A stretch of DNA of 64,000 nucleotides from IMG/VR virus record IMGVR_UViG_3300011868_000001, positions 160,001-224,000 of that record; one strand, written 5' to 3'. A program made the translations under genes and the position numbers. Positions 17,059 through 61,652 of the stretch are shown in pieces (positions within the stretch are counted from its first letter, which is position 1; each line of letters opens with the position of its first letter). The notes below the pieces were generated by a model. It made no database searches, was not told the DNA's origin, and saw only the letters and a list, made by a program, of their open reading frames with translations. The DNA is from a virus. Its lineage: Duplodnaviria > Caudoviricetes.

Positions 17059-17142
17059 CGTGCGTACCTGTAAGTTTTTCGGTCGTTTTCGACAGTTGGT
17101 ATGAAGGAGGCTTAGTATTATAAGCCAAATTGGAGAATTTCG

Positions 17143-44445: not shown

Positions 44446-46845
44446 ATGAGTACTGTACTTCCACAATACCCTTTCGATCCGACGGGGCTCGCGACGTCGA
44501 ACAAGGTGACCGAGACTCAGGCGATTGAATCGCGTGGGATGTTCGATCATTATTACATCATTCCCCGCAGCGGTCCGTTTTATGCGGAGACGGTAAGGCT
44601 ACGGCTATACCCTGCCGGTGCAAATATCAATAACCCGGCGGGCGGCGAACCGCTCGAAGAAGGACTGCATTTTAACTTCGGGTATCATTTCGCCCATGCA
44701 TCACATACCATTGGAAAGCCGGTATACGGGGCGATTTCTTTCTATGACCGTCAGTTGACCGGTCAGCTGCGCATGGAGTACCAGACACTCGGTGGTGACT
44801 GGGTCCTCGACGACCAGAAAATGACCGAGCTGTTGGGTAACGTGGCGTACAACCCGCGTACCGCAACCTGGGAACAAGTGGTCGAGTTGCCGCATCAATT
44901 CCCGGTGGTTAACCACGACTTTAACATCGACGATTTCGTCGGTATGAGTGAAGTGGTTGATCAGCTGGAAGACATCACCGATGCGATCAATCAGAAGACT
45001 GCAGGTGGTATGGCCGATCACGTCAATGCCAAGAACAACCCGCACGAAGTCAGCAAGGATCAAGTCGGTCTGGGGTTGGTGGATAACTTCCCCACAGCAG
45101 CGCCTGCTGAGGCCACTGGCGGCACGGCCAACAACCGCTTCATGACGCCCCTGCGTACTAAGCAACTGATCGACGCTACCGCAACAGTCGCCCTGAACAA
45201 TCACATGGGCGATACGACCAACCCCCACGGTGTCACTAAGACTCAAGTAGGGCTGGGTAACGTTCAGAACTATGCGGGGGCGACCCAGGCTGAAGCGGAA
45301 GCAGGGGCCAGTAACGCCCGTTACATGACTCCGCTGCGTACCCGCGAAGCCATTGAGGCCATTGTCGGGGTAGCATTCAACGCCCACGTCAACAACAAGA
45401 ACAACCCGCATGGCGTGACCAAGGCGCAGGTCGGTCTGGGCAATGTGCCGAACATCGGTGTCGCCACGGATGCCATGGCATTGCAAGGCCAGTCGGATGC
45501 CGGGATCATCACCCCGCGTTTGTTGTCCATGGTGCTGAGCGAAACGGTTGGCAGTGGGGTCACTGAGCACATTGCTGACTCCAATAACCCACACGGTGTA
45601 ACAAAAGCACAAGTGGGCCTGAGCAACGTTCAGAACTATGCAGTGGCTACCGAGGCCGTGGCACGCGATGCCACCTCTAATGCGCATTACATGACGCCGT
45701 TGGCTGTCCGTTATGCTGTCGCTGCACTGGTCGGGGAAGGCGGCGTTGGTGATCACATTACCAACCTCAACAACCCGCACCGAGTGACTGCTGCTCAGGT
45801 GGGTACGTACTCTGCTGAAGAACTCGATGCACTGCTCAACGACAAACTCGACGACACTGCAGCGGCTGCCGATGCCTTGGCTGTATTTGGCATGTCGCAA
45901 GGCGAACTGGAAGGGTGGATCGGAGGTCTGCGGGCAGGCAACAGCGTACTGTTCGATAACAAGACCTACGCTCAAGTCAAAGAAGATATCCTGGCGGGTA
46001 AGGCTGCTGATGCTGCTAAACTCGATGGACGTACCTACGCACAGATTGTTGCAGCCATTGGTGAAGCCGTTGATGGCGGCAATACGCAGCATAACGTGCC
46101 ACCGGTAGGTCCGGTTGAAGACGCCAACGGTGACTTCGGCGATGCCCCTCAGCATTGGTTGAAGATCGGCAAGTTCCAACAGCCGCTGGATTATCAATAC
46201 GGTGACATGACCCTATTGATCACTGGCGGGCGCGATGAAGACTCCGAGACTGAACGGCACCACACCATCTTGCTGGAACTGTCGACCACCAACGACTACC
46301 CGGTCGATGGCCTGAGCTTCACGCCGCTGCTGGTGCGCGCCCCTCGGGTTAAGCACCTGACTCCAGCAGAAGAGCCGATCCGGATCGGTTATGTGGTCAA
46401 CCACGGTGATGCGATCCCACGTCCGTGGATCGATATCTACATCCAGACCATCGGTCAACGTGCAGGTTGGACGGTAACGGAGCTGTCGAACAAGTTCTTC
46501 GTTCCTGAAGTGTTCGATCCGATCAATGAGGTCTCTGACCTGCTCTTGGTCGAACCTGCAGGCATCGTCTATCCGCCGGTCATCTCCGATGGCTCTGCTG
46601 AGATCATTGCGCTGCAGGCATTCTCCGAGCGCAAGGACAACCCGCATCAGGTGACGAAAGCGCAGGTCGGCTTGGGCTCAGTCCCGAACTACCCAGCTGC
46701 AACTTCCGCCGAGGCACTGGCCGGGACAGCCACCAACCGTCTCATGAGTCCGGCCACCACCCAGGCCAGCGTCGACCAGGCCATCAACAGTCTGTGCGAT
46801 CACCTGTCTGAAGTGGTCGACAATGCTCTACCGCTGTTTGCTTAA
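44446..46845 (+). CDS. tail fibre protein with NPH repeats (phiKZ gp146-like)
   Basis: YPFDPTG N-terminus; six NPHxVTKxQVG(LG) repeats. Confidence 0.8.
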   Translation: MSTVLPQYPFDPTGLATSNKVTETQAIESRGMFDHYYIIPRSGPFYAETVRLRLYPAGANINNPAGGEPLEEGLHFNFGYHFAHASHTIGKPVYGAISFYDRQLTGQLRMEYQTLGGDWVLDDQKMTELLGNVAYNPRTATWEQVVELPHQFPVVNHDFNIDDFVGMSEVVDQLEDITDAINQKTAGGMADHVNAKNNPHEVSKDQVGLGLVDNFPTAAPAEATGGTANNRFMTPLRTKQLIDATATVALNNHMGDTTNPHGVTKTQVGLGNVQNYAGATQAEAEAGASNARYMTPLRTREAIEAIVGVAFNAHVNNKNNPHGVTKAQVGLGNVPNIGVATDAMALQGQSDAGIITPRLLSMVLSETVGSGVTEHIADSNNPHGVTKAQVGLSNVQNYAVATEAVARDATSNAHYMTPLAVRYAVAALVGEGGVGDHITNLNNPHRVTAAQVGTYSAEELDALLNDKLDDTAAAADALAVFGMSQGELEGWIGGLRAGNSVLFDNKTYAQVKEDILAGKAADAAKLDGRTYAQIVAAIGEAVDGGNTQHNVPPVGPVEDANGDFGDAPQHWLKIGKFQQPLDYQYGDMTLLITGGRDEDSETERHHTILLELSTTNDYPVDGLSFTPLLVRAPRVKHLTPAEEPIRIGYVVNHGDAIPRPWIDIYIQTIGQRAGWTVTELSNKFFVPEVFDPINEVSDLLLVEPAGIVYPPVISDGSAEIIALQAFSERKDNPHQVTKAQVGLGSVPNYPAATSAEALAGTATNRLMSPATTQASVDQAINSLCDHLSEVVDNALPLFA

Positions 46846-46915: not shown

Positions 46916-48490
46916 ATGAGTGTACCACCAATTATCCAGTACCCGCTCGATCTGTCGGGTACGTCGCCAACGAACCGAATCGTTGGTGAGCGTCGAGAAA
47001 TCTCGACCAATGCAGAACGTGTGTTTGTCCCAAAGGCAGGTCCTTTCTACACCGAGTCGTTTGTAATCTACAACGATGAGACTGGCGAGCCGCTTCGGCC
47101 GGTAGACGACTACCTTTTGGTACAGCCGTTCGCCCAAGCATCGCTGCGCAGCGGTAAGGATGTTCAATCTGCCGTTGTTCTGAAGATGCAAGCCCCTGTT
47201 ATCGTCCGCATGGACTACCGCGTTGTGGGTGGTGAGTACTCGTGGAACCTGGGAGCGCTGGCTGACCTTATCGCGGAACTCAATCTCGATGAGCGCGCCG
47301 TTAAATGGGGATCGATCATTGGTCGTCCCACCATGTACCCGGCCGCACCACACATCCATGACATCGGCGATACCTATGGGTGGGAATACGTGGTCTGGCA
47401 ACTGGAGCGTGTCACTAACGCCATTCTGGTTGGTGACGAGGCGTCCCACGAAGAACTGCGTCAACAGATGCTGTATCTGCGTGACCAGCTGCAGGCCAAT
47501 ATCGATGCAGTCGATGGCAAGGTTGACGAACATCTCAATGACTTCGAAAATCCACATCGCACAACGAAGGCGCAGGTCGGGCTCGGTTCGGTAGACAACT
47601 TCCCGACAGCCACTTCGGTCGAAGCCAACACCGGTACAGCCAACAACCGCTTCATGACGCCGGCGACGACCACCACCTTGTCGACGCGCATCGCTCGTGA
47701 AGAGGTCAATGCCCACGAGGCGAAGAAGAACAACCCCCACGATGTCACCAAAGCTCAGGTAGGGTTGGGTAATGTCGACAACTTCCTGACGGCTACTCAG
47801 GCACAGGGTGAATCGACCACGGTCAATGACAAGTTCATGACCCCGCTGCGCACCTACCAGGCCATCATGGTCCATGCCGGTACCTTGCTGAACGTGCACG
47901 TGAACAACAAGAACAACCCGCATGAGGTGACGAAAGCACAGGTCGGTCTGGGGCTGGTAGACAACTTCCAAACCGCGACCCGTACCGAGGCCATTGAAGG
48001 TACATCCAATGCACGCTTCATGACGCCGCTCAGGACCAAAGAAGCGATCGACGCCATTGCCGGTAACCTGATTCAATCACACGTCTCGAACCTCAACAAT
48101 CCGCACAAAGTCACCAAGGATCAAGTCGGTCTGGGTAATCTGCCGAATGCCATCACGCGCAGCCGGACATTGAACTCTGACGCCCACCTGCTGACCGCCG
48201 GCGGTATGTTCGATCACGTGGCCTCGGGCGATCATGACAACCGTTACGTGCGCTTGAACACCACCCAGAACACCAGTCTGCGGGTAGTGAACAATAAGCT
48301 TCAGTGCTATGTCAGTGGACAGTGGCGACAGATCTGGCCGGCGACCTGGACTAACTTTGCCGCAGAAAGGGCAAACGATCCGGTACTGGGTAACGACCAG
48401 CAAATCCAACTGCTGGTGGCCGGTGGTCGCCTATATGCAACGGTAGCTGGCGCGTGGCAGCAGGTCTGGCCTGCACTTTGGACAGACTAA
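46916..48490 (+). CDS. tail fibre protein with NPH repeats (phiKZ gp145-like)
   Basis: YPLDLSG N-terminus paralogous to the previous gene; four NPH repeats; duplicated W-rich C-terminal module. Confidence 0.8.
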   Translation: MSVPPIIQYPLDLSGTSPTNRIVGERREISTNAERVFVPKAGPFYTESFVIYNDETGEPLRPVDDYLLVQPFAQASLRSGKDVQSAVVLKMQAPVIVRMDYRVVGGEYSWNLGALADLIAELNLDERAVKWGSIIGRPTMYPAAPHIHDIGDTYGWEYVVWQLERVTNAILVGDEASHEELRQQMLYLRDQLQANIDAVDGKVDEHLNDFENPHRTTKAQVGLGSVDNFPTATSVEANTGTANNRFMTPATTTTLSTRIAREEVNAHEAKKNNPHDVTKAQVGLGNVDNFLTATQAQGESTTVNDKFMTPLRTYQAIMVHAGTLLNVHVNNKNNPHEVTKAQVGLGLVDNFQTATRTEAIEGTSNARFMTPLRTKEAIDAIAGNLIQSHVSNLNNPHKVTKDQVGLGNLPNAITRSRTLNSDAHLLTAGGMFDHVASGDHDNRYVRLNTTQNTSLRVVNNKLQCYVSGQWRQIWPATWTNFAAERANDPVLGNDQQIQLLVAGGRLYATVAGAWQQVWPALWTD

Positions 48491-48530: not shown

Positions 48531-49037
48531 ATGCTTAAGAAAATCGATTTCCAGTTCCAAGGAATCACCGAAGAACTGCTGATGGTGGACCAGTTTCTGT
48601 CAAGCCCCCATCCCTATGAACAGGGGTTAGTCAAGTATGTGTTCAACGATGCATCGTACGGGATCAACAGTCCTATGGAGTATCTTGAGCACAGTGACAA
48701 GCCAATCAAGGTCGAAGGCTATGAACGGTTGAATGCTGTTCTGTTTGGCGAGTGTCAACGCCTGGCGGCCTACTTCGGACACGCTGGGTATGTATCCTGT
48801 CACCTGTTCATCTCCCCTAAGGGATCAACGAGCTTCTCCATGCACACCGATCCGGATGATGTGGTCGTCTATGTTGTCAAAGGTGGCAAAGAGTTCGAAT
48901 CCATTGACCAGCTGGAATCTGTTAAAGCTGGTGATGTGTTATACATCCCGCGCAATCACCCACACCGTGCCATCAATACCGACAGTTCGCTTATGCTGAG
49001 CTTTGGGTTGGAGCTGTTTCTGGAGCAGAAGCTTTGA
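48531..49037 (+). CDS. JmjC/cupin-type 2OG-Fe(II) oxygenase (YcfD/ROX-like)
   Basis: HTDPDDV...KGGK...GDVLYIPRNHPHRA: HxD...H facial triad. Confidence 0.8.
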   Translation: MLKKIDFQFQGITEELLMVDQFLSSPHPYEQGLVKYVFNDASYGINSPMEYLEHSDKPIKVEGYERLNAVLFGECQRLAAYFGHAGYVSCHLFISPKGSTSFSMHTDPDDVVVYVVKGGKEFESIDQLESVKAGDVLYIPRNHPHRAINTDSSLMLSFGLELFLEQKL

Positions 49038-50074
49038 GCCTCAATAAAACCATTTACGTCAAAACCACAGGCACTTGTAACCTTGACTGTCAACACTGCT
49101 TTACCAACGGTAAGAACGGGGACAAGACCCAGTTTGACCCTGAGGTCACAGCAGAGTGGGTTAAGGCGTTTATGGCCAAGTACCCAACCGATACTCACTA
49201 CCACATGGAATTCCATGGCGGTGAGCCGTTCCTGGTGCCGTTGGAGAAGCTCAAGCGCTATGCCGATCAGTTTGTCGAGCACCCTCATGTGTCGATGTGT
49301 GCCAACAGCAACCTGACGTTCAAGTTGACAGATGCGCACATTGCGTTCATTCAGAAGTATTTCAACGGATACATTGGAACCAGTTGGGACCACTGGATTC
49401 GTTGGAGTAACGACAAGCAATTTCAGTTATGGAAACGTAATTTGGAATTGTTGAAAGATAATGGTGTGACCATTGCACTTAAGGCGTCGGTAAGTCGCCA
49501 ACTGCTGACGATGACACCTGACTGGTTCTTGGACCAGATGGAAGCCCTGGCAGTCGATGAGGTCTCACTGGAACGTCTGACCATGGACGGCAGTGCGCAA
49601 TGTAACGTCGGTATCTTCCCGGACAATGAAGAGCAAGACAACTGGTATCTAGCGCTGTATCAGCGCTATAAGGCTCGTCAAGGCCGCGTGCGCATCAAGA
49701 CACTCGACATCATTGAAGACAAGCTTAAAACCAATCGGGTCAAGGTCGATACCAACTGCCGCAACTGCGAGCAGAATCTGGTGACCATCAACTCGGACGG
49801 TTCGCTGTCCGGTTGTCCAAATGCAGCAGCAGCACTGCATCATGCGAAGTTGGAAGATGGGGTCGATGCATTCCTCAGCTCCGATGGACTGATTCAAGAG
49901 ATCACCTCAGAACTGACATGGGGTGACACCTGCCTTTCCTGCGATGTCTTTGACCTGTGTGGTGGCGATTGTCACCGCCTGCCGTGGCAGAATGGACGAT
50001 GCGGTGGGTTGAAAAATACCCTGCGTCATCTGTCAGGCCGGAATACACAATCCAATTTGATTTTGAAGGTGTGA
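49034..50074 (+). CDS. radical SAM/SPASM-like protein 1
   Basis: CNLDCQHC, HGGEP, C-terminal CRNC..GCP..CLSCDVFDLCGGDC..C. Confidence 0.9.
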   Translation: MSLNKTIYVKTTGTCNLDCQHCFTNGKNGDKTQFDPEVTAEWVKAFMAKYPTDTHYHMEFHGGEPFLVPLEKLKRYADQFVEHPHVSMCANSNLTFKLTDAHIAFIQKYFNGYIGTSWDHWIRWSNDKQFQLWKRNLELLKDNGVTIALKASVSRQLLTMTPDWFLDQMEALAVDEVSLERLTMDGSAQCNVGIFPDNEEQDNWYLALYQRYKARQGRVRIKTLDIIEDKLKTNRVKVDTNCRNCEQNLVTINSDGSLSGCPNAAAALHHAKLEDGVDAFLSSDGLIQEITSELTWGDTCLSCDVFDLCGGDCHRLPWQNGRCGGLKNTLRHLSGRNTQSNLILKV

Positions 50075-50075
50075 A

Positions 50076-50627
50076 ATGACCGAACAAATTACCCGTAACC
50101 GAATCGCGATGAATGCCAACAGCCGGATTCGCGATCGTTGCAACAGCGGTATCTCCTGGGGTACCAACAACTACCCGGCCAACTCTGATCCGGCCTGGTT
50201 CGGTGGCCCGACCAGCGGTCTGGCAGTATCCATGAGCCGCAATGACTTCTCCGGCGGTGAGCCGTCAGTATCGCAAGCGGTATCTGCCCTGCGTACATTC
50301 GCCAACCGCTTTGCTGCCATCCGCACCATCCGTATCCTGATCTACCGCAGCAAGTCGGGTTACTCCAGCGGTAACGGCAACATCCTTGAGTACGATGGTA
50401 CTGCGGTAGCCCACTCGGCGTACTCGTCTGGTGCTCATGCCAATAGCGTTGCGCTGTCGGCGATGCGTGAAGGTGTGGAGATGGACCTGGACACGCTGAA
50501 CAGTTCGCTGGACGAGCTGTGGAACGCCTACGTAGCCGGTGCCCGCAACACTGTGCTCAACCGCGAACGTGTCATCTGCCATACCAGCTGTCACAGCAAC
50601 TGTCACTGCGCCCGCGGGCGTCGTTGA
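50076..50627 (+). CDS. 183-aa protein with C-terminal CHxxCHxxCHC-ARGRR motif, candidate radical SAM substrate
   Basis: Ends ICHTSCHSNCHCARGRR; strongly biased codons; starts 1 nt after the rSAM 1 stop. Confidence 0.8.
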   Translation: MTEQITRNRIAMNANSRIRDRCNSGISWGTNNYPANSDPAWFGGPTSGLAVSMSRNDFSGGEPSVSQAVSALRTFANRFAAIRTIRILIYRSKSGYSSGNGNILEYDGTAVAHSAYSSGAHANSVALSAMREGVEMDLDTLNSSLDELWNAYVAGARNTVLNRERVICHTSCHSNCHCARGRR

Positions 50628-50661
50628 TCACCCATCGTCCTCTTTAGCCGAGACATTCATC

Positions 50662-51417
50662 ATGAGCGAACAACCCACCACCCCTGCGGTAATCCCCTGC
50701 ACTGCTCCAATCGCGGTCAGTGACCTGAAGCGCAAGTTCACCGAAGACGTTGTGTTTGTTATCGACGTCGATGCCAGTAAGTTAAAAGGTCGTGCTCTGC
50801 TGACGTACCTGTCGAACCTCAACACCAATATCCATCTGCAATTTGGTAGTGTCGAGGCGACCACCGAACTGCTGCGTGATTACATGGCCTCGACGTTGCT
50901 GATCAGCATCGCTGAATTGGAAGACCTTGCTATCAACCTGCTACTGGCAGCCACTGGTCGTGCGTACACCCTTCCGTTCGAACCAGCGTCCTTCATTGAA
51001 GAGAACGAGGCGCTGATCGAGACCTGGCTCAAGCGACTGGACTCACTTCCGGCGTTTGCGCTGTACTGCCACCCGGCGCACAAAGAGGCCGTGGAGCAGA
51101 CCTACCCAGAAGACACGGACGAAAGCATGGCGGGGCTTAACTTCGTCAAGCTGATCGAGCATGAGTTGTTCCCGGTTCTGATGGCGGGCGTGCAGGAAAG
51201 TGATTACAACTGGAACCGCGTGCTGTTTAACGAGTACATCTTCGCTGGCGATAATCTGTTTAAGTTCTTTGCCAGCAAGAACAACCCGTACTTCATAGCA
51301 CTGCTCGCCGATGAATGTCCGGAGGAGTTTGGCCGTGTTCTGCCTATCATGCAGACCCTGGTGCATAAAACGACCCAATGTGTAAAGGAAATCGAACATG
51401 TATCACATCCGCAGTAA
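50662..51417 (+). CDS. hypothetical protein of the rSAM island
   Basis: Likely start MSEQPTT; overlaps the next gene. Confidence 0.75.
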   Translation: MSEQPTTPAVIPCTAPIAVSDLKRKFTEDVVFVIDVDASKLKGRALLTYLSNLNTNIHLQFGSVEATTELLRDYMASTLLISIAELEDLAINLLLAATGRAYTLPFEPASFIEENEALIETWLKRLDSLPAFALYCHPAHKEAVEQTYPEDTDESMAGLNFVKLIEHELFPVLMAGVQESDYNWNRVLFNEYIFAGDNLFKFFASKNNPYFIALLADECPEEFGRVLPIMQTLVHKTTQCVKEIEHVSHPQ

Positions 51418-52453
51418 AGCCTACGTCGAGATCGATTCTCGCGTAACGCGCGACAATCCCTATATCTCGTTCGGCAAGCACGTCGGCTACGAGTACGTCC
51501 CGGTGGCACACGAGACTGCTGCTCAACAACTCACTTACGCCCAGTCCCTCGATGACCTGAGCAGTGATGAATTCAAAGCCGCCATGAATGCAGCGTTCAC
51601 CAGCAAGGAAAAGGTGTTCATCTTCGCCGATGGCAAAACCTACCTGCGTCTGTACGCCATGGTCGTCAAAGCGCTGCTTCCATCGGTGACTCTCGATGTG
51701 TTCCGTTGGATCTTCCTGTGCAAGAAGGCAACCTTCAACGTCTCCTTGCTGAACATCCGCAAGCCGGCGTCGAACATTCTGGATGAAGTCCAGATCAATG
51801 CCAAGACCATCGAAGCACTGTTCAAGCAAGAAGACCCGCATCAGCAGGCGATGAATGAACTCATGGCAGCGGCGCCCGATGAAGTTTCGCTGGAATGGCG
51901 TATCCTGCGTCTGCTGACCTGTGACCGGGTCGGGAAGCTGCCCAAGACGCTGCGCAACATCCTGCGGCGTATCGCCCTAGCCAATACCCACGACGCCCTC
52001 GACGTCTGGGGTCGGATGATTGCCGATCCGGGCATGTGGGAGTTTGCTGGGTGTGACATGGACACCCTGATGAACGGCAACAGTGTCTTTGAAGGCACCC
52101 TGAAGTTCCATTACCTGAACAACCCGATGTTCCTGCAACCTGGTGTGTTCGAAAACGAACCGACCAAGGACTGGATTGTTGGTCTGCTCAAGGAACTGGT
52201 GCAGGTGCTGGAGTTCTGTGACGAAGGTCCGACCGCCGGGCGTACTCGTCTGATCCTCGAGCTGATCAAAGACGAGACCAACCTGCAAGACCCGGAAGCT
52301 CTCAAAGCACGGGTTGTGACCATGTTCAAAGGCGCCAAGCGTTTGGCCCTGCCGAATGCCGATTCTGGCAAGTACGATGAAAACCTCATCCGCTACGTAT
52401 TGAACGAGGACGTCGAAGTCCTGCGTCAGTGCGTCAAAGGAGCGCAGTGGTAA
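51398..52453 (+). CDS. hypothetical protein of the rSAM island
   Basis: 351 aa; AAGGA RBS; coupled to the next gene by TAATG. Confidence 0.75.
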   Translation: MYHIRSKAYVEIDSRVTRDNPYISFGKHVGYEYVPVAHETAAQQLTYAQSLDDLSSDEFKAAMNAAFTSKEKVFIFADGKTYLRLYAMVVKALLPSVTLDVFRWIFLCKKATFNVSLLNIRKPASNILDEVQINAKTIEALFKQEDPHQQAMNELMAAAPDEVSLEWRILRLLTCDRVGKLPKTLRNILRRIALANTHDALDVWGRMIADPGMWEFAGCDMDTLMNGNSVFEGTLKFHYLNNPMFLQPGVFENEPTKDWIVGLLKELVQVLEFCDEGPTAGRTRLILELIKDETNLQDPEALKARVVTMFKGAKRLALPNADSGKYDENLIRYVLNEDVEVLRQCVKGAQW

Positions 52454-53448
52454 TGGAACTGATCCCCGTAGTGAACATCCTCCAAGAGAAGAAGGGTAAG
52501 TGGAAAGAAGCTCATCTGATTCTGTTTGAGTACTGTAATCTACGGTGTTCTTTCTGCCATCAAGACCACGACTCCAAGGTGGGGTTTGACACCATCGCTG
52601 AAAAGGTCGAGACGCTCATTGCCAACACCGACCCACGGCAACCGTACGTGGTGAACATGACCGGTGGTGAGCTGTTCTTGGACGAGTTCCCTGATGAGCT
52701 GTTCGAGCAGTACTACCAAGCAGGTAAACGTATCTTCGAACACTTCGACGATGCCTTGCTGGTACTGGGAACCAACCTGGTCTATCATCGGGTGGAGCGG
52801 TTGATCAAGCTGGTCAATCGACTCTCCACTCATGGTCGGGTCCAGATCGCCACGTCGTACGATCCAGCGGGTCGTTTTGATCGCGTCAGCCGGATGCTGT
52901 TCATACACAACCTGCAGCGCGTGAAGGAATACGTCAAGACCATCAACGTGGTGATCACCAAGCAGAACATCGAGGCGTTCCTGAGTGAAGACGAAGGGTA
53001 TGAAGTCGCCTGGATGTGCGAACACTTCGATGTGTACTTCGACCACTACATCCCCAGTCAGATGTATGAATACATCCAGCCGGATGAAGACCTGATCAGT
53101 CAGCTGTACCTCAAACTCAATGAGCGCTATCCGAACTCCTATCCGATCAAGGACTGGAAGAACAATGCGTTCAACGAGACCACCTGTCGCTCGACCAAGA
53201 TCGTCAACAAAGACGGGATTGTCAGCACCTGTTGGTCCGAGGCCGGTAAGAACGCCATCTTAGATGAAGCCGAAGGCCTTAAAGCCAAGGACGAAGCTGA
53301 GATGCGGTTCGTGGAGAAATACAACTGCTTCGCTTGCGAGTACTATTCTCGCTGCGGGATGCGTTGCTTCCTCCATCACTCGTTCATTGACGACGGAAAT
53401 GATGTCTGTCAGATCAAATTGATGTTCGATAAAGTGGTAGAGGCATAA
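52453..53448 (+). CDS. radical SAM/SPASM-like protein 2
   Basis: CNLRCSFC, TGGE, C-terminal CFACEYYSRCGMRC..C. Confidence 0.9.
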   Translation: MELIPVVNILQEKKGKWKEAHLILFEYCNLRCSFCHQDHDSKVGFDTIAEKVETLIANTDPRQPYVVNMTGGELFLDEFPDELFEQYYQAGKRIFEHFDDALLVLGTNLVYHRVERLIKLVNRLSTHGRVQIATSYDPAGRFDRVSRMLFIHNLQRVKEYVKTINVVITKQNIEAFLSEDEGYEVAWMCEHFDVYFDHYIPSQMYEYIQPDEDLISQLYLKLNERYPNSYPIKDWKNNAFNETTCRSTKIVNKDGIVSTCWSEAGKNAILDEAEGLKAKDEAEMRFVEKYNCFACEYYSRCGMRCFLHHSFIDDGNDVCQIKLMFDKVVEA

Positions 53449-53451
53449 CAA

Positions 53452-53485
53452 CATACGGGCTCCGGGCAACCGGAGCCTATATGCC
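53452..53485 (+). terminator. CATA/TATG hairpin within the island
   Basis: CATAC-GGGCTCCGG-GCAA-CCGGAGCCT-ATATGCC. Confidence 0.65.
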
Positions 53486-53618
53486 GTTTGCATTTAAATA
53501 AATACTTGCGTCAGCTGATATGAATGTTAGTCATGGGGAATTTGTCACCATTCCCATGTTATGACCTAGACAGTAAGGTATCTTCCCTTACTGGACGATT
53601 ACCCGAGAGGCTTTCCCC

Positions 53619-53795
53619 ATGAATGTACAAGAATTTCCCTTGACGCCTGAAGGCTATCAGCAGGCCATGCAATGGATGAAGGACGAAGGACTCGATCCAG
53701 TGGAACATGCTAACCGAGAACTGTCCACTGACGGTTACACCATTGTCAATCTGGTGAACCACCTGCGCCAACGTAAGGTCGCACAGACTGCCTAG
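53619..53795 (+). CDS. 58-aa hypothetical protein (MNVQEFPLTPEGYQQAMQWMKDEGLDP...)
   Basis: Read by hand (below the ORF-track cut-off); GAGAGG RBS; fills the gap before rSAM 3. Confidence 0.7.
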   Translation: MNVQEFPLTPEGYQQAMQWMKDEGLDPVEHANRELSTDGYTIVNLVNHLRQRKVAQTA

Positions 53796-53808
53796 AAGGA
53801 ATGTGTAA

Positions 53809-54897
53809 GTGGACTTGATCCTGAAGCCAACCCAGAAATGTAACTTTAAGTGCACCTTCTGCTCGAGCACCTACTTGAGCGAAGACAATCGGGAAATTGT
53901 CGATCTGAGTCAGGTTGCACTGTTCATCAAGCGTTTCCCTGAGACGCGTACGGTGATTGTCAATGGGGGCGATCCGTTGATGATGCCGCCAGAGTACTAC
54001 TGGGACCTGATCGACATTCTCGATCAGTTGGGTTCTCAGGCCAGCATCTCCTTTACCACCAACCTCTGGCCGTTCTATAAGAAACCTGAATTGTGGGAAG
54101 AGCTGTTCAAACACCCCAGAATTGGCGTGACCACCTCGTTCCAATACGGTGAGGGGCGGCTTAAAGGTGACGGCACACCGTTGACCGAGGCTGAGTTCAT
54201 TGCCATGAGTGATCTGTTTCTGGAACGGATCGGCTATCGTCCTGATTTTATCGCAGTGATCGACAAGGACAATGAACACACTGTCCTTGATACGGTCCGG
54301 TTGGCTAAACGCCTAGGGGTGGAAGCCAAGGTCAACTATGCGGTGGCCTCAGGACCTGTGGTGGTCAACAAAGGCATCACCATGGGACATGCTGAAAGCA
54401 TGTACACCCAAGCTGACATGTATAAAGCCTACATCGAGATTTACGATGCAGGTCTCATGCAGTGGGAGTTCAACACCAAGCAGATGGTCAAGCGCATCAA
54501 GACGCAGAACACCATCTGCCCATTGAGCCGGGACTGCGACAGCGGGATTCGAGCCTTGCAACCTGGTGGCGGCTATTACTCCTGCGGGGCCTTTGGCGAT
54601 GACCTGAAGTATCCCATCGACTTTAAGAAAGAGATGGCCGGTGAATTCTTCCGTCCCTTGAGCAATCAAGAAGAGCTGTGGTCGATGAAGGAGGCCTGTA
54701 ACGAGTGTCCGATGTTCCTGATCTGCAATGGCTGTCGTAAGACCGTGACCGACACCAAGCGGTTAGGTCTGGCTGAGCATCACTGCAAGACCATGAAGAG
54801 CATTGCACCGCGGATCATCGAACTCAACGGGATGCAGGACTACCTGGTCCCCACCCCTTACGTGGACGAGTCTGTCCAGATCATCGCCCGAGGCTAA
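53809..54897 (+). CDS. radical SAM/SPASM-like protein 3
   Basis: CNFKCTFC, NGGDP, C-terminal CP...DC..SCG..CNECPMFLICNGC..C. Confidence 0.9.
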   Translation: MDLILKPTQKCNFKCTFCSSTYLSEDNREIVDLSQVALFIKRFPETRTVIVNGGDPLMMPPEYYWDLIDILDQLGSQASISFTTNLWPFYKKPELWEELFKHPRIGVTTSFQYGEGRLKGDGTPLTEAEFIAMSDLFLERIGYRPDFIAVIDKDNEHTVLDTVRLAKRLGVEAKVNYAVASGPVVVNKGITMGHAESMYTQADMYKAYIEIYDAGLMQWEFNTKQMVKRIKTQNTICPLSRDCDSGIRALQPGGGYYSCGAFGDDLKYPIDFKKEMAGEFFRPLSNQEELWSMKEACNECPMFLICNGCRKTVTDTKRLGLAEHHCKTMKSIAPRIIELNGMQDYLVPTPYVDESVQIIARG

Positions 54898-54899
54898 GC

Positions 54900-55142
54900 A
54901 TGGCGTATATCGATCCTTTTGAGCGCAGTCCGGTAGCCGACTCCCTGTCGGCTGAATCCGCCAAGCTCGATGAGCAGCTCAACGCAGTCTTCCAACGTGA
55001 AGCCGAGTTCTTTGAGCGTCAACTGGCCCATCGTAACATGCGTCTAAACTCACGGGGAGTGGCTCAATTGGAAATGAACCTACGGGATTTTCTGAACAAG
55101 GCCATTGCTGACATCGAAAAGGACCTAGACGATGCTGGCTAA
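54900..55142 (+). CDS. small helical hypothetical protein
   Basis: 80-aa ORF in operon. Confidence 0.7.
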   Translation: MAYIDPFERSPVADSLSAESAKLDEQLNAVFQREAEFFERQLAHRNMRLNSRGVAQLEMNLRDFLNKAIADIEKDLDDAG

Positions 55143-55187
55143 CAAATTGGCCATGGCCATCGCAATCATCATCCATGAGGGCTTATT

Positions 55188-56192
55188 GTGGGCCGACCGA
55201 AAATCAACCTCAGCCTGAACCCCACTTATTATTGCAACCTGCGCTGTGAGTTCTGCTACCTCACGCCAGAGCAGCTGGGCGATAAGACCCGTCTGGAGCT
55301 GGATAAGTTCGAAGAAGTGCTGCTCGATATCTTGCAGCATTACGATGTCGGTCATGTCGACCTGTATGGCGGTGAAGTCCTCTTGTTGCCCCCGGAATAC
55401 CTGCGGGGTCTCAAAGACATCCTGCACACCTACGGGATCGATGATATTGTTCTGGTGACCAACCTCACCCTGACCAATGAGATCACCGAGGACTTGGACT
55501 TCGATCTGTCAGTGTCGTATGACTTCGGGGCACGGGAGATGCATGAGCGGGTGTTCAACAACCTGCTGGCATTGCCCAGACCGTACACCATCCTGACCCT
55601 GGCCAGCCGGAAGTTTCTCGATACGGTGAGTGTGGATGAATTCGTCCAGACCATGAACCTGTTGAGTGGGGCCAAGGACGTCGAGATCAAGCCGTACAGC
55701 GCGAATCAGGCTAACACGCATGCAGTGTACTACGATGAGTTCGAACGCTTCGTATGGGCGGTTATAGAGCATCCTGACAGGCAGTTCTACTTCGAGAATG
55801 AACGCCAGATCAAAGAAGCGGTTGAGGGCCAACGTAACGCCTTCAGCGATGACCACCTGTACATCACTCCGACTGGCCAATTGGCCGTTTTGGAGTTCGA
55901 TGCCAATGACAATGAGTTCTTCCTCCCGGTTGATGGAGTGGAAGGCTATCTTGCGTGGTGTGCAAAAGAAAAGCAGGCCGTGGCCCAGAACGGGCATTGC
56001 GGGACCTGTACCTACATGGGACATTGCCTCTCCGAACATTTGCGGGAGGTGAAAGACTTGTCCCATTCCTGTAACGGTTTTAAGGGGTTACTTGACCTAT
56101 GGACAACCCACACCTCGTCCAACACCGACAACGCCTGGAGATCACGCTTGATCTATTCCGAGGCTGTGCCAACCACTGCGCCGGATGCATGA
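55188..56192 (+). CDS. radical SAM protein 4
   Basis: CNLRCEFC, YGGE, C-terminal CGTCTYMGHC..SCNG. Confidence 0.9.
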   Translation: MGRPKINLSLNPTYYCNLRCEFCYLTPEQLGDKTRLELDKFEEVLLDILQHYDVGHVDLYGGEVLLLPPEYLRGLKDILHTYGIDDIVLVTNLTLTNEITEDLDFDLSVSYDFGAREMHERVFNNLLALPRPYTILTLASRKFLDTVSVDEFVQTMNLLSGAKDVEIKPYSANQANTHAVYYDEFERFVWAVIEHPDRQFYFENERQIKEAVEGQRNAFSDDHLYITPTGQLAVLEFDANDNEFFLPVDGVEGYLAWCAKEKQAVAQNGHCGTCTYMGHCLSEHLREVKDLSHSCNGFKGLLDLWTTHTSSNTDNAWRSRLIYSEAVPTTAPDA

Positions 56193-57127
56193 TCGACCGC
56201 ACCATCGGTGGCGATGTCGATGATCTGCCAGAACTCAAAGCCCTGATCGAGGAGATGACCGCCGCCGGTTATGTTGCTTTCGATCTGGGCGTTGGACCAA
56301 CCGACTACATGACGGCCGATAACAAGGACGAAGTCATGGTCCATCCGGTTTTCCAAGCCATGGCACAGTTGTTTCATCAGGTGACCTTCAATGCTGCATT
56401 CCTGGAAAAGGACCTGACGAAATACACCCGCATGTGTCAGGAGATCGATCAGTGCATCCCAGGCAAACCGATTCGTTTCCTGATCCCGGCTGCTCCCAGT
56501 TTCTTCAAGACCAATAAGTTCAGTGACATGATCAACATGAAACTGAACCATGTCAAAGACAGTCTGCACGATGCCTTCCTCAACGAGGCGGGCTTTGTGG
56601 TAAACTGTACCAAAGACACGGTCGACGATGAATTTGAAGAGATGCTGGTCAAAGGGTTCGATGTCGAGTTTCCGGTCGATAAGGATGACATCCTGAACAT
56701 CCCCTATGGTCGGGCACCGGTCAAAGACCTTCAGGTGGCGCAGCAGATTCAGCGCATGAGTTATCGCATCAGTCACTATTACAAATTGCTCAATGGTACC
56801 GACGAGCGCCGGAAGAATCCTGATCTGTGCCTCAATACCGGGACCATGACCAATCTGCTGTATACCGATGGCAAACTGTACTGGGTACCCTTCCTCAAGG
56901 ACGATTGTCCGTTCCTTGAAGATGCGTTTACCGTGCCCAAGCCCTGGACTATGGATAACCTGCTGGCGACGCGTCAGAAGGCGCTGGATGCCTCTCTGGA
57001 GTACCTCAAAGACACCCCCTGCATGCAGTGTCCTTACATCTCCAGTTGTGCTGAGAAAGGCATTACCAGCATCATGCAATTTATGGGTATCAAGGACTGT
57101 CTGGTAGGGCTTGACTATGCACAATGA
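56099..57127 (+). CDS. atypical radical SAM-like protein 5
   Basis: CANHCAGC; GPTD where GGEP is expected; C-terminal CMQCPYISSC..C. Confidence 0.75.
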   Translation: MDNPHLVQHRQRLEITLDLFRGCANHCAGCMIDRTIGGDVDDLPELKALIEEMTAAGYVAFDLGVGPTDYMTADNKDEVMVHPVFQAMAQLFHQVTFNAAFLEKDLTKYTRMCQEIDQCIPGKPIRFLIPAAPSFFKTNKFSDMINMKLNHVKDSLHDAFLNEAGFVVNCTKDTVDDEFEEMLVKGFDVEFPVDKDDILNIPYGRAPVKDLQVAQQIQRMSYRISHYYKLLNGTDERRKNPDLCLNTGTMTNLLYTDGKLYWVPFLKDDCPFLEDAFTVPKPWTMDNLLATRQKALDASLEYLKDTPCMQCPYISSCAEKGITSIMQFMGIKDCLVGLDYAQ

Positions 57128-58160
57128 ACGCGTCTCTCAAACCTTTAACCTTGGGCTTGAAGTGCTCAAGGGGTGTGGGTACAGTTGTTCGGGCTGTACG
57201 GTCGACAAGAACTTTGCCGACTTCGATGTACCAGAAGATGATGCCCGCGCTATCCTTGGTCTGCTCGCCGATCTTAAAGCGCAAGACTGGCGAATGCTCG
57301 AGCTTAAGATCGGGCCGACAGACATCACCAGCTCCGACAATGGCTTTGCCGTGTTGCAGCACCCGGTGATCAAAGAGATCGCCTCGTACTACAAGGTGCT
57401 GACCTTAAACGCTGCCATGCTCCATGACCGTAACCTGCCTGAGTTGGCAGAGCTGGTCGACGAGTTGATGCCGGGCAAGTACGTTAACATCGGCACCCCG
57501 TTTACCTTGAAGAACGTGGCCAATGAAAAGTACATGGCGATGATGAAAGAACGCTTGGCGTACTTCCAGAGTCTGTTGAAGAAAGCGTCTTTCACTCGCC
57601 TGTATGCCACGATAAACATTGAGGAAGAGAACCTTAAGCAGTTCAACCCTGAGTCGTTCAGTCTGATTCGTAACTATGACTTCGGCTCTGGGATCGATAA
57701 GGTGATTGAGTTTCCGTTTGTCAATGCTCGCCAAGGGTTTGACAACCTGCTCATTGCCGAACGCTTCAAGCGCGACATCAAGCAGTTTGCTGATTTTGCC
57801 AAGACGCGTATCAACACCCATGAGTTCGTGCCGTTGATCCCCGGTGTCAAAGAAGGCTATGAGTACACGTACCGTACCGGCAAACTGTACTCGACCATTG
57901 TGCTGGTTGAGAACCTGACGCTGTACAAAGACAAGTATGAGTTGGCAAGGCCATGGACGGGCGAGCGGCTACTCAAGCACCGAGAAGACGCCTACATCAA
58001 CAACCTGGTCAAGTACAGCGAACATCCCCAATGTGGGACGTGTTGTTTCTTGGATCATTGCGCCCGGTGCGACGTCCAACATCTGATGGAAGAGACGGGC
58101 AGTGACACCTGCCTGATCGAGATGCATAACCGCTGGGATCTGGCTCATGTAGAGCACTGA
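57117..58160 (+). CDS. atypical radical SAM-like protein 6
   Basis: CGYSCSGC; GPTD; C-terminal CGTCCFLDHCARC..C; paralog of 56099-57127. Confidence 0.75.
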   Translation: MHNERVSQTFNLGLEVLKGCGYSCSGCTVDKNFADFDVPEDDARAILGLLADLKAQDWRMLELKIGPTDITSSDNGFAVLQHPVIKEIASYYKVLTLNAAMLHDRNLPELAELVDELMPGKYVNIGTPFTLKNVANEKYMAMMKERLAYFQSLLKKASFTRLYATINIEEENLKQFNPESFSLIRNYDFGSGIDKVIEFPFVNARQGFDNLLIAERFKRDIKQFADFAKTRINTHEFVPLIPGVKEGYEYTYRTGKLYSTIVLVENLTLYKDKYELARPWTGERLLKHREDAYINNLVKYSEHPQCGTCCFLDHCARCDVQHLMEETGSDTCLIEMHNRWDLAHVEH

Positions 58161-58173
58161 TGAGGAACCGTCA

Positions 58174-58608
58174 ATGGACTCGTTATACACTATCGTCGAC
58201 AACGTGGCAATTCCTGAGTGGCTTGTCGATGCTGCAATGTGCGAACCGAATAAAGGGTCCATTGACACGCCCGAGATTTGGAGCTTTGTAGAGAAACAGC
58301 TCCTGCCGCTGGTCATGCGTCAGACTCAGGCACAACCGACCCTTTATGTATCGTCGAATCACGTGCACATCAGTGCAGCGGGCCTGACCCCGCACGATCA
58401 TCTGCCCAACGCATTTACGTCAGTGCTTTATCTGGTAGATGCCGAAGGACGGTTGATCATCGACCCCGATGGGATCAATGAACGGGTCAAACCGGCGGCT
58501 GGTCGATTCGTCATTTTCAAAGGTGAAACCATTCATGCGGTGGAGAAATCGCCGCAGAATGAATTGCGTATTTCGCTGGTGAGCAACTATGAATACCCTT
58601 CCGTATAA
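58174..58608 (+). CDS. 2OG-Fe(II) oxygenase-like protein
   Basis: PHDH...SVLYL...GRFVIFKGETIHAV...RISLVSN. Confidence 0.75.
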   Translation: MDSLYTIVDNVAIPEWLVDAAMCEPNKGSIDTPEIWSFVEKQLLPLVMRQTQAQPTLYVSSNHVHISAAGLTPHDHLPNAFTSVLYLVDAEGRLIIDPDGINERVKPAAGRFVIFKGETIHAVEKSPQNELRISLVSNYEYPSV

Positions 58609-59020
58609 GGCCTTCCAACGACTCTATGACGAGCTGGTGCAAGAACACAGCGACGCATTTGAGTTAATGGAGTTTGTCATTGATGATGAACTCGTCAACA
58701 ACGCCATGAAGTATTTCGAGGCCGCGACCTTTCCGCTGATCTATCCGGCCAAGAGCTATGCAGTGGCGATCATCTATGCCCACAAGCTCAGTGAGATTTA
58801 TGGTCTGGATATCCACACGGTCCTCGATGACAAGGACCTGTTCCTTGGCCAAGACCCGTACTTTGTCCCGTACAGTGAAGACCCGGCGACGTACGAGGCC
58901 ATCCTTCAGCGCTTAAAGCACAAGCCCAACTGGCTGGAATCGGGGTGGGCTCCGAAAAGCGTTCAATACTGCTTGCTCGAATGCACCGAGGCAGGCATCC
59001 AATCATTGACGGAGGTGTAA
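58589..59020 (+). CDS. hypothetical protein of the rSAM island
   Basis: 143-aa ORF overlapping the upstream gene and abutting the next. Confidence 0.75.
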   Translation: MNTLPYKAFQRLYDELVQEHSDAFELMEFVIDDELVNNAMKYFEAATFPLIYPAKSYAVAIIYAHKLSEIYGLDIHTVLDDKDLFLGQDPYFVPYSEDPATYEAILQRLKHKPNWLESGWAPKSVQYCLLECTEAGIQSLTEV

Positions 59021-59578
59021 ATGGACACGCACTTGTTGTGGGCGACGCCGGTGGCGCGGATCAATGTGGCTGATCAGTTCGACATGGCGGCCTGGGCTGA
59101 TGAAGTCTTTGCCATGTACACCATGACCAATGGCGAAGACGACCGGCAGCGGTTCATCGACCCGGATATCTTCCCCGTGATCCTGAAGATGCGTGATGAA
59201 GTCATCACCCCGGCGGTCAATGCCTTCTGCAAGGAACACTTCGGACAAGACATGGAGAAATTCTATGTCGAGACCAATGGCAAGTGGATCGTTGAAGGCG
59301 AAGGCCTCTACGCCCATCTGCATCCTGGCAGCGTGCTTTCGGCTATCTGCTATCCAGGTGACTCAGCCAATGGGTTGAACATGTTCGACCCCAGGCTCAA
59401 TGCCATGCGAGGCTACCCGAAACGGATGCGTAATCATCACTTTGCCAACTTCCGTATCAGCCCTAAGCAGGGGGATGTCTGGATCTTCCCGAGCTACGCG
59501 CAGCACAGTGTCTCGCACGTGACCGAGGAAGTCCGGCTGTCGCTGCTGCACGAATACTACATGACCGATAACCTGTAA
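59021..59578 (+). CDS. 2OG-Fe(II) oxygenase-like protein (HxH type)
   Basis: AHLHPGSVLSAICY...FDPR...GDVWIFPSYAQHSV...RLSL; GGAGG RBS. Confidence 0.8.
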   Translation: MDTHLLWATPVARINVADQFDMAAWADEVFAMYTMTNGEDDRQRFIDPDIFPVILKMRDEVITPAVNAFCKEHFGQDMEKFYVETNGKWIVEGEGLYAHLHPGSVLSAICYPGDSANGLNMFDPRLNAMRGYPKRMRNHHFANFRISPKQGDVWIFPSYAQHSVSHVTEEVRLSLLHEYYMTDNL

Positions 59579-59587
59579 GGATTTTCC

Positions 59588-60244
59588 ATGTCTGAACAAT
59601 ACCCTCTGTATCCAGGGGCTGATCGCGGCCAGTTCCGTGTAATGCGCCTACTGGACAACTCCGGTGTGCAATTGCGAGCCCATGCCCGCATCAAAGACGC
59701 AGTGGTATTCAACTACCTGTCAGCGATGCAGTACGCGATCATTGGTTACAGCCTGGAATGGTGGAAGGATGGTGACCCGGCACCGTATGACGGTGGTGAG
59801 GCCTTGCCGTATATCCCCAAAGGCCGGCCCAACCTGAACAAACTGTACTTTCGCGGCAAGACCACCCTGACCCCGAACATGCTGCACCTGGAAGATGCCA
59901 TCATCAACGACTTTCTCAACAGCAAGGCATTGGCAGATCCTATGTCACTGTGGTCGTATACCCAAGAGGCAGCTGAACAAGTTGCCAGTGCGGCTGAATG
60001 GCGTCCGTTGTTGAACAGTGCGTATTCGTTCGCCAACGCTGTCCATATCACTCGTCTGGCTGCCACACCCAGCTCGCCACTGACGATCGACAGTGAGGGG
60101 ATGCGGTTTGATTATCGCCGCACCAGTAGCCCCGATCAGGTCTTCAGTACCATCCTGCGGGACTACAAATTCGAGAAGCTCCGAGACTGCTATCCGGCAA
60201 TGCTCGAACTCATTGAGAGTGAACAAAATGGCAGCAACCGTTAA
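59588..60244 (+). CDS. hypothetical protein of the rSAM island
   Basis: 218-aa ORF, AAGGA RBS. Confidence 0.7.
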   Translation: MSEQYPLYPGADRGQFRVMRLLDNSGVQLRAHARIKDAVVFNYLSAMQYAIIGYSLEWWKDGDPAPYDGGEALPYIPKGRPNLNKLYFRGKTTLTPNMLHLEDAIINDFLNSKALADPMSLWSYTQEAAEQVASAAEWRPLLNSAYSFANAVHITRLAATPSSPLTIDSEGMRFDYRRTSSPDQVFSTILRDYKFEKLRDCYPAMLELIESEQNGSNR

Positions 60245-60941
60245 CCAACTGAAAGAACTGCAGCGTGGACTGAAAGCTATGGGCCTGTACGCCGGCAACA
60301 TCGATGGTGCCTGGGGTCAACTGAGCCATGGGGCATTCATGAACGCCCGACGCATGACCGAGAAGCAGCGTAAGGATGCTGTTGCCCGTCTGGGCATCGA
60401 TCCGATCCTCCTCGCCTACTGTAATTCAACGGCCTGGTCGGAGAAGGTCAGTGCTCAATTCGTTGAGTCGGTCAAACTCATGGTCGCCAACCTGGGCATG
60501 CCTGCCTCGGGGGCTGACGACATGATGGCCTGCATGGCATGGGAAACGGGTGAGTCGTTCCGTCCCGATATCAAAAATGGTGCAGGTTCGGGTGCAGTCG
60601 GCCTGATCCAGTTCATGCCTGCCACCGCCAAGGCCCTGGGTACCAGCACCGACGCGCTGGCGAAGATGACGGCTGAAGAGCAGTTGATCTACGTCTACGA
60701 CTACTTCAAGCCGTACCGCAATCGCCTGAAGAACTTGGGCGACCTCTACATGGCCATCCTTTATCCCGTGGCGATTGGCAAACCGGATGACTACGTACTG
60801 TTCAAAGAAGGCACGGTAGCCTACACCCAGAACAGGGGGTTGGATATCAATAAGGACGGGAAAATCACCAAAGCTGAGTGTTGCGCAAAGGTGCAGCAAA
60901 AACTCGTAGCTGGCCTGCATCCTCGCATGCTGCGCGTTTAA
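60228..60941 (+). CDS. endolysin: peptidoglycan-binding domain plus lytic transglycosylase-like domain
   Basis: LQRGLKAMGLYAGNIDGAWG PG-binding motif; WETG..F.P..GSGAVGLIQFMPATA SLT-like motif; DINKDGKIT EF-hand-like loop. Confidence 0.85.
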   Translation: MAATVNQLKELQRGLKAMGLYAGNIDGAWGQLSHGAFMNARRMTEKQRKDAVARLGIDPILLAYCNSTAWSEKVSAQFVESVKLMVANLGMPASGADDMMACMAWETGESFRPDIKNGAGSGAVGLIQFMPATAKALGTSTDALAKMTAEEQLIYVYDYFKPYRNRLKNLGDLYMAILYPVAIGKPDDYVLFKEGTVAYTQNRGLDINKDGKITKAECCAKVQQKLVAGLHPRMLRV

Positions 60942-61004: not shown

Positions 61005-61652
61005 TCATCGTTTGTAGTCACGATTCGCTTGTCGCTTAGTAGCTGTCTCCTCAATAGACCATCCGTTATTTAAACGGTAGGCAACTGTATTGGGGTCAAG
61101 TCCTATCAACTCAGCAAATGATGCCAATGTCATTTCAACCCCTTCATAGATCACCGTTCTGTTACTCGAACGATTGTTGGCCTGTACCTTTTCTGTGACC
61201 CAGCGGCAATTACCTGGCTCATAACCACCGTCGTTATCGCGCCGATCAATGCTCAATTCATCACTATATCCAGACGACATAGCCCATTGCTCGAACGCTT
61301 GAAAGCTATTAGCCCATTCGGCACAGACATGAATGCCGCGACCACCATAGCGATCGTAGGCGCCATGTGTTTCTAAATCGCAGCGGCGATTCATCGCTGC
61401 CCAGATACGGTACAGGCGCGTTTGACCGCCGTTGGCTGCATGGCCGTGTATGGTTGCCTTTTGACGAGATACTTCTCTACGATGACATCCACATGACTTA
61501 CTGTCACCACGTTTAACCGAATGTGCGGCGAGAGTCGTTACCTGTCCACAATCGCATTGAAATTTCCAGTATGCGTTCTTCTGATGCGAGTGTGAAAATT
61601 CGAGCGCCACGAGTTTGTTGTAGCGATTTCCTTTTATGTCTGCAATTGCCAT
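61005..61652 (-). CDS. free-standing HNH homing endonuclease
   Basis: CDCG...SCGC; YGGRGI.VC.EW; SIDRRDNDGGYEPGNCRW...QANN; lower GC than neighbouring genes. Confidence 0.85.
   Translation of the reverse strand: MAIADIKGNRYNKLVALEFSHSHQKNAYWKFQCDCGQVTTLAAHSVKRGDSKSCGCHRREVSRQKATIHGHAANGGQTRLYRIWAAMNRRCDLETHGAYDRYGGRGIHVCAEWANSFQAFEQWAMSSGYSDELSIDRRDNDGGYEPGNCRWVTEKVQANNRSSNRTVIYEGVEMTLASFAELIGLDPNTVAYRLNNGWSIEETATKRQANRDYKR

Follow-up and report, generated by a model that had tools for sequence, protein, structure and literature searches.

The 64,000-nucleotide stretch analysed here (the window; positions 160,001 to 224,000 of the virus record IMGVR_UViG_3300011868_000001, which comprises 253,747 bases and is 96% complete) belongs to a phiKZ-like phage and carries, at 48531–60244, a block of 16 genes for radical S-adenosylmethionine (rSAM) proteins, oxygenases, and a small protein with a Cys/His-repeat tail, the CH protein. 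We consider it probable that this block is a protein-maturation cassette with the CH protein as its substrate, in which a virion protein associated with fibres has its tail modified, probably by cross-linking. The parts of this reading differ in strength. The tail is very probably the substrate, as gene linkage and conservation indicate, and we are equally confident that the CH protein is a virion component in the window phage, a placement that follows from one published proteome and from genomic context. A role at the fibre tip or in host contact is slightly favoured. Inter-subunit cross-links made by the cassette enzymes are a tentative suggestion, whose chemistry is drawn by analogy from knowledge of rSAM families only.

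The CH protein (50076–50627, 183 amino acids (aa); all features are on the plus strand unless stated) consists of a folded, variable body (residues 1–167) and a tail of the form (CHxS)3-RxRR (168–183). The consensus CHx[SN]CHx[SN]CHx[SAN]RxRR makes up the last 16 residues of 187 of 209 homologues, and its chance probability, calculated from composition, is ~1e-14 per C-terminus; the tail picked out in the initial annotation is thus real. Columns of the tail have a conservation of 0.82 and those of the body one of 0.29–0.45, and the predicted local distance difference test score (pLDDT) is mostly >85 in the body and 51–54 in the tail, with a mean of 89 reported for the folded 183-aa protein. 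The 254-kb genome has only one such tail. The family comprises 650 clusters at 50% identity, its body being a confidently folded domain of 125–300 aa with a variable hairpin loop, and it belongs to no Pfam or NCBIfam family. When the model was compared with the PDB (Foldseek, VIA-align) and with the Atlas, nothing matched clearly, the best Z being 5.0 for a designed helical protein; fold matches were limited to viral homologues.

Several variants of the CH protein were seen. In P0069 (L041:10001–10684) the tail is expanded to ~10 CH repeats, and one subtype has two tandem CH proteins of 125–140 aa along with up to five rSAM5/6 paralogues (loci L126, L145, L153, L162, L170, L181, L183, and L199–L201). 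In another variant (L039:7198–21362) the CH protein carries a fused Gly-rich domain, the cassette includes a B12-dependent rSAM, and an aminotransferase adjoins it. Myovirus ctijX18 encodes three proteins of 500–660 aa that match the CH fold (BFVD A0A8S5USJ7, A0A8S5USJ8, and A0A8S5USV2).

Gene linkage ties the CH protein to the enzymes. Starting from the CH protein we found 68 distinct viral loci, 52 of them with full flanks; these loci are related to one another, and the counts are not of independent events. The rSAM1 gene lies immediately 5' of the CH gene in 65 of 66 loci and U4 immediately 3' in 64 of 65. Among the 52 full-flank loci, rSAM1, rSAM3, and U4 are present in 52, U5 in 51, the JmjC, rSAM2, and rSAM4 genes in 50 each, the 2-oxoglutarate (2OG) oxygenase OG2 in 47, and U14 in 46, whereas rSAM5 (21), rSAM6 (19), OG1 (15), and U16 and two small open reading frames (ORFs; nine or fewer) are less frequent. 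Co-occurrence of the enzymes with the CH-repeat protein is therefore near-perfect across viral loci. The pathway of 16 genes proposed at first holds as a conserved core, but only about 10 of the 16 belong to it (JmjC, rSAM1, CH protein, U4, U5, rSAM2, rSAM3, rSAM4, U14, and OG2), and rSAM5 and rSAM6 are perhaps non-catalytic. Among 15 close relatives, identity to the window is ~50% for CH, U4, and U5, and 62–75% for the rSAMs, the pattern expected where the chemistry is fixed but a substrate and the proteins that handle it drift.

Six proteins of the block have the CxxxCxxC motif, as initially annotated, but they are unequal in Pfam score, C-terminal Cys, and other motifs. The conserved C-terminal Cys clusters attributed to all six number eight auxiliary Cys in rSAM1 (49034–50074), seven in rSAM2 (52453–53448), and eight in rSAM3 (53809–54897), which corresponds to two auxiliary clusters of SPASM type, and only four in rSAM4 (55188–56192), rSAM5 (56099–57127), and rSAM6 (57111–58160). 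For Radical_SAM (PF04055), rSAM1, rSAM3, and rSAM4 score above the cut-off and rSAM2 falls 1.7 bits short (27.8 vs. 29.5); rSAM5 reaches 14.5 bits and rSAM6 has no match. A CxxxC-aromatic-xC motif and a GGE-type motif occur in all of rSAM1–4, which are mutually homologous (hhalign 97–99%) and form one viral family, phrog_1802. In rSAM5 and its paralogue rSAM6 (hhalign 100%) no aromatic residue stands ahead of the third Cys and GGE is replaced by GPTD, so that their activity is doubtful and they may not be catalytic; their three Cys are invariant, hhalign places them at 9–81% against rSAM1, rSAM2, and rSAM4, and their copy number varies among loci.

The models that match rSAM1 and rSAM3 best describe maturases of peptides or proteins rather than enzymes of cofactors or nucleotides, and no cofactor or nucleotide rSAM model came near its cut-off in an NCBIfam search of the cassette rSAMs. 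Among NCBIfam models, those scoring highest with rSAM1 are FxsB, PapB, YhhB, anSME, and AmcB, at ~50 bits each; the PapB and DynA models match 39 of 39 aligned rSAM1 homologues, and the nearest solved structures are TigE-like 8VPO, anSME, CteB/5WGG, and ChlB. The closest likeness is to the maturases that lack a RiPP recognition element (RRE; RiPP, a peptide made by ribosomes and modified post-translationally), namely the triceptide cyclophane synthases FxsB, YhhB, AmcB, and ChlB, together with PapB, a ranthipeptide maturase, and DynA, which share the size and SPASM Cys layout of rSAM1 and rSAM3. Triceptide, PapB, and DynA-type enzymes introduce cross-links at aromatic or Cys residues of short repeats. 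Here, however, scores of ~50 bits stand against cut-offs of 340–450 and none of the rSAMs reaches any maturase family cut-off (best: FxsB 49.6 vs. 370; PapB 48.9 vs. 340), while the substrate is folded and no protease or exporter accompanies it. In rSAM2 and rSAM4 there are weak, mixed matches only (QueE, viperin, and MoaA), and rSAM3 is the most conserved cassette rSAM between distant lineages. The cassette rSAMs are new families tending towards maturases of peptides and proteins, with rSAM1 the prime candidate maturase. As regards an RRE/PqqD leader-binding domain, the rSAMs carry no N-terminal extension, and the U4 model has no clear structural match.

The remaining core members are two oxygenases and three proteins named only by number. 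Of the three cupin or 2OG-Fe(II) oxygenases originally proposed, the JmjC-type cupin (48531–49037; PF08007) and OG2 (59021–59578; PF13759) pass their Pfam cut-offs, but OG1 (58174–58608), a non-core paralogue of OG2, has a weak match; metal-binding His are retained in all three. U4 (50662–51417, 251 aa) has no conserved Cys or His, diverges at a rate similar to that of CH, and has a median identity of 47% among viral loci. Its predicted model (pLDDT 95) belongs to no known family and gave no clear structural match in fold searches; its proposed role is that of a substrate-binding chaperone. U5 (51398–52453, 351 aa) and U14 (58589–59020, 143 aa; phrog_20737), the latter also found in bacterial loci, have no assigned function, and the profiles of U4, U5, U14, and rSAM5/6 have no solved relative.

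Evidence for the virion location comes from the proteome of phage Atu_ph07. Its gp170, a CH-family protein from the same cassette, is listed among the virion proteins (31.89 kDa, 8 peptides, 35% coverage), and the cassette neighbours gp164–169, gp171, and gp172, including enzymes, were not detected in the virion mass spectrometry (MS) (PMC6102473 Table S5). In our analysis of that table, gp170 peaks in gel band 1, among proteins of 76–139 kDa, and among 34 Atu_ph07 proteins of 25–40 kDa with at least three peptides it alone peaks above band 4. The sample had been heated in 4% sodium dodecyl sulfate (SDS), and the listed loading buffer is without reductant. The window CH protein and gp170 have the same fold and are 33% identical over ~50 C-terminal residues; all three Cys of gp170 lie within the tail. 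The initial proposal that the system matures a virion component is supported by this homologue, by the best models of rSAM1 and rSAM3, and by the co-occurrence of the enzymes with the CH protein.

Genomic context places the CH protein close to fibres. A fibre gene lies just upstream of the cassette in 54 of 66 viral loci and is of two unrelated types, judged by the C-terminal motif; the cassette follows fibre genes in two unrelated phage lineages. In the window this gene is TF2 (46916–48490, 524 aa; PHROG, blastp), whose end (47900–48490) carries a Trp-rich tip motif twice, with one or two copies in relatives; the motif occurs in the gene preceding the cassette in 21 distinct phiKZ-type loci. 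Within the same cassette type, the CH protein P0165 ends in a Peptidase_S74 domain, a mark of trimeric fibres (PMC10769870). In FLC4-3B, the TF2 orthologue itself ends in S74 and is followed, in the cassette slot, by a single unrelated gene for a 185-aa protein, gp76 (L247:11697–12254), which has no Pfam or PHROG match and no similarity to CH. The N-terminus of gp76 seems to us to recall the anchors of gp38-type adhesins, which we take as an unconfirmed lead only.

In the mechanism that we propose, U4 would act as an adaptor and, with U5 and U14, present the CH protein to rSAM1–4 late in infection. 5'-Deoxyadenosyl radicals formed by rSAM1–4 would bond Cys sulfur and/or His rings of the three CHx[S/N] repeats to carbons nearby, either inside one subunit or from one subunit to another; the JmjC and 2OG enzymes would add oxidations, and rSAM5/6 would be accessory. 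The matured CH protein would then assemble on the tip of the fibre encoded upstream, capping or extending it, with TF2 as the putative docking partner, and would serve in host attachment.

Several points weigh against this reading. No modification of the CH tail has been observed to date, and a set of six rSAMs and three oxygenases looks large for a 16-residue tail. The evidence for virion presence is a single homologue in one polyethylene glycol-purified preparation, and the gel shift of gp170 could reflect ordinary disulfides, given a loading buffer without reductant and a tail that holds all three Cys, or an SDS-stable oligomer. In addition, the RSL2 and RSF1 records label the CH gene 'hypothetical' and the fibre 'virion protein', and 12 of the 66 loci have no fibre gene before the cassette. 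A crude scan found a hydrophobic N-terminus in 0 of 209 CH proteins; bacterial CH proteins show no hydrophobic signal peptide either, and the model does not account for how they would reach a surface.

On one hand, the CH protein resembles a RiPP precursor or a peptide-derived cofactor, with a leader-plus-core layout and an unstructured, invariant tail; the body would then be a carrier, and the tail would be heavily remodelled and then released by cleavage as a small molecule that binds metal or is bioactive. The many oxidising enzymes, the expansion of repeats in P0069, and bacterial copies without signal peptides fit such a product. On the other hand, a Pfam search found neither a protease nor a transporter among the 16 genes, and the precursor would be a folded protein (183 aa in the window, 125–300 aa in the family) with a variable loop rather than a classical peptide, made by enzymes below the maturase cut-offs. 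Furthermore, a homologue is found at high mass in virions, and fusions to S74 and Gly-rich domains are typical of structural proteins. This origin of the tail is therefore unlikely.

The same tail could also serve a structural protein, without being modified, as a metal or disulfide clamp, while the enzymes act elsewhere, be it on sugars, nucleotides, a small cofactor, or different proteins of the virion. His/Cys metal sites are present in the fibre tips of T4 (gp37 and gp12), and we count these in favour of a clamp, as we do the disulfides that would explain the gel shift, the weak QueE, viperin, and MoaA matches of rSAM2 and rSAM4, and the variant with a B12-dependent rSAM and a nearby aminotransferase. 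The authors of the DT01 genome counted six rSAM genes and suggested DNA repair or metabolism (PMC8541153). A clamp, however, gives no reason for rSAM1 and U4 to sit on either side of the CH gene in 98% of loci, nor for the CH-tail gene to be kept across reshuffled bacterial gene orders, and the lack of any cofactor or nucleotide model near its cut-off likewise speaks against it; we consider it improbable.

The closest known system in its working mode is HXS (HxsA–D), which has several rSAMs and a helper, one substrate protein with His-x-Ser repeats, and a place at the host–phage interface (PMC13128918). The CH tail also has three His-x-[Ser/Asn/Ala] triplets, but here a Cys precedes each His, the repeats form a C-terminal 16-mer ending in RxRR, four to six rSAMs are joined by oxygenases, and the substrate has no export signal. 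Gene order differs as well, HxsD-B-C-A in a four-gene system (PMC13128918) versus another order among ten core genes, and the models for HxsB (TIGR03978; 27.5 vs. 370 bits) and HxsC (TIGR03977; 27.5 vs. 267.9 bits) score far below their cut-offs. In HXS the HxS-repeat protein that partners the rSAMs keeps DNA from entering (PMC13128918), and with its HxS triplets and basic end the matured CH protein might by the same token block the entry of competing phage DNA or be injected to act on the host instead of being an adhesin, but this is very unlikely given the absence from CH proteins of a signal peptide and of the Pfam peptidoglycan-binding domain that goes with a periplasmic HXS effector, the HxsB and HxsC scores, and the outward-pointing fibre linkage and S74 fusion.

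Returning to tail maturation as the preferred reading, three further systems offer partial parallels. In the anaerobic sulfatase maturase anSME (TIGR03942; PDB 4K36–4K39), which acts on a protein Cys, the enzyme aligns with rSAM1 over its full length, both auxiliary clusters included; the score is nevertheless 48 bits against 349, no sulfatase domain was found with Pfam, and the CxPxR/CxAxR motif is not kept, the third tail repeat having C-x-x-x-R spacing with mostly G, S, C, or N in the middle, Ala in 3 of 187, and Pro not among the common residues. The CXXX-repeat target system (TIGR04114/TIGR04115) likewise has Cys at every fourth residue beside an rSAM/SPASM gene, whereas the CH tail has only three repeats, each with a His; TIGR04114 had no match among 51 CH proteins (E up to 1), and TIGR04115 matched 10 of 39 rSAM1 proteins weakly. 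Adhesins that sit at the fibre tip on trimers chaperoned by S74 (T-even gp37/gp38; Bdellovibrio MAT fibres, PMC10769870) share with CH a small variable protein behind a fibre gene, the S74 link, and a range across phages and Bdellovibrio, but the searches gave no clear sequence or fold match and none of them is known to need rSAM maturation. The system would be HXS- or RiPP-like in its working mode but lies outside the HXS, CXXX-repeat, anSME, and named RiPP families.

The cassette spans phiKZ-like phages, the T4-like phages Atu_ph07 and Phosso, and bacteria, and sequence comparison indicates that it is accessory in phiKZ-like phages, since 295 phage records have the TF2 fibre family, compared with 12 phiKZ-like records among the 15 that have rSAM1 or rSAM3, and since FLC4-3B has the same flanking genes around an empty site. 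The accessory status had originally been argued from synteny with adjacent phiKZ gp145 and gp144, and this argument fails, as the window fibres match phiKZ gp133–135 (blastp) and gp144 precedes gp145 in phiKZ. The nearest cultured relative at the cassette locus, Pseudomonas phage pPa_SNUABM_DT01, has a nearly identical gene order. No cassette match was found in plasmids, and a genome-scan match at locus L124 proved spurious.

The system had also been taken as phage-encoded only, yet it is present in chromosomes of Bdellovibrionota: the CH profile finds it in 11 of 384 genomes belonging to one order, and rSAM1 in 17 of 401 from across the phylum. All 17 bacterial loci examined keep a CH-type tail, two of them degenerate, despite reshuffled gene orders. 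Of 10 loci picked by rSAM1 alone, 4 have S74 fibre genes no more than 10 kb away, as do 3 of 5 earlier loci; several of these genes have prepilin-like starts, and five tested genomes have one to four S74 matches each, possibly an undercount. One could imagine that Cys-His tails cross-linked between CH subunits form a hardened adhesive fibre tip or filament, common to unrelated jumbo phages and predatory Bdellovibrionota and used for gripping bacterial prey, although we think this rather doubtful.

Two further observations concern the bacterial copies. One copy (L261:1–3173) stands beside type IV pilus genes, with PilM (Pfam) and a prepilin-peptidase-like ORF (by eye). A conserved Bdellovibrionota protein of ~200 aa occurs near the cassette, mostly beside S74 fibre genes (L262:12581–13192, L271:18351–18905, L272:18155–18784, L275:7930–8529, and L270:6416–7003); its link to the C-terminal domain of the T4-like fibres found ahead of the phage cassette was weak (hhalign 43%, no HMM match) and we did not retain it.

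Within the window, ORF positions confirm that 16 co-oriented, coupled genes lie between the second fibre gene, TF2, and an SLT-type endolysin (60228–60941; PF01464 above cut-off), preceded further left by TF1 (44446–46845), a fibre-like virion protein of 799 aa of the phiKZ gp133–135 family (PHROG tail/virion families, blastp). Junctions are overlaps or at most 45 nt, the exception being a 170-nt structured spacer with four hairpins between rSAM2 and rSAM3 (53449–53618; fold z = -2.97), and the better start sites are 50662 for U4 and 52453 for rSAM2. The spacer is an insertion hot spot among relatives, and RSL2 and RSF1 hold two DHFR-like genes there. The two small non-core ORFs encode 58 aa (53619–53795; 8 of 52 loci) and 80 aa (54900–55142; 4 of 52). 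U16 (59588–60244, 218 aa; 9 of 52), confined to close relatives, is probably outside the cassette. In the phages of L008/L009 the end of the cassette carries an inserted second gene for a TF2-like fibre (16231–17676). Past the endolysin, on the minus strand (61005–61652), a Cys-rich 215-aa ORF resembles an HNH-type homing endonuclease; its correct frame has no Pfam match.

Covalent virion maturation is known to proceed through proteolysis, isopeptide chain-mail, disulfides, and glycosylation. Literature searches yielded no description of the present system and no report of rSAM maturation of a virion protein, and genome papers list the cassette genes without tested function. The family occurs in the cultured phages DT01, RSL2, S13, and Atu_ph07, which have laboratory hosts. 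If our reading is correct, the cassette would contribute a number of new rSAM families and a tag of 16 residues whose His/Cys chemistry is possibly new, and a cross-linked fibre tip would represent both a new chemistry of virion maturation and a new shared attachment structure. It may help to explain how jumbo phages attach to their hosts, it would link phage fibres to the adhesins of predatory bacteria, and it would tie phage infectivity to the iron-sulfur supply of the host.

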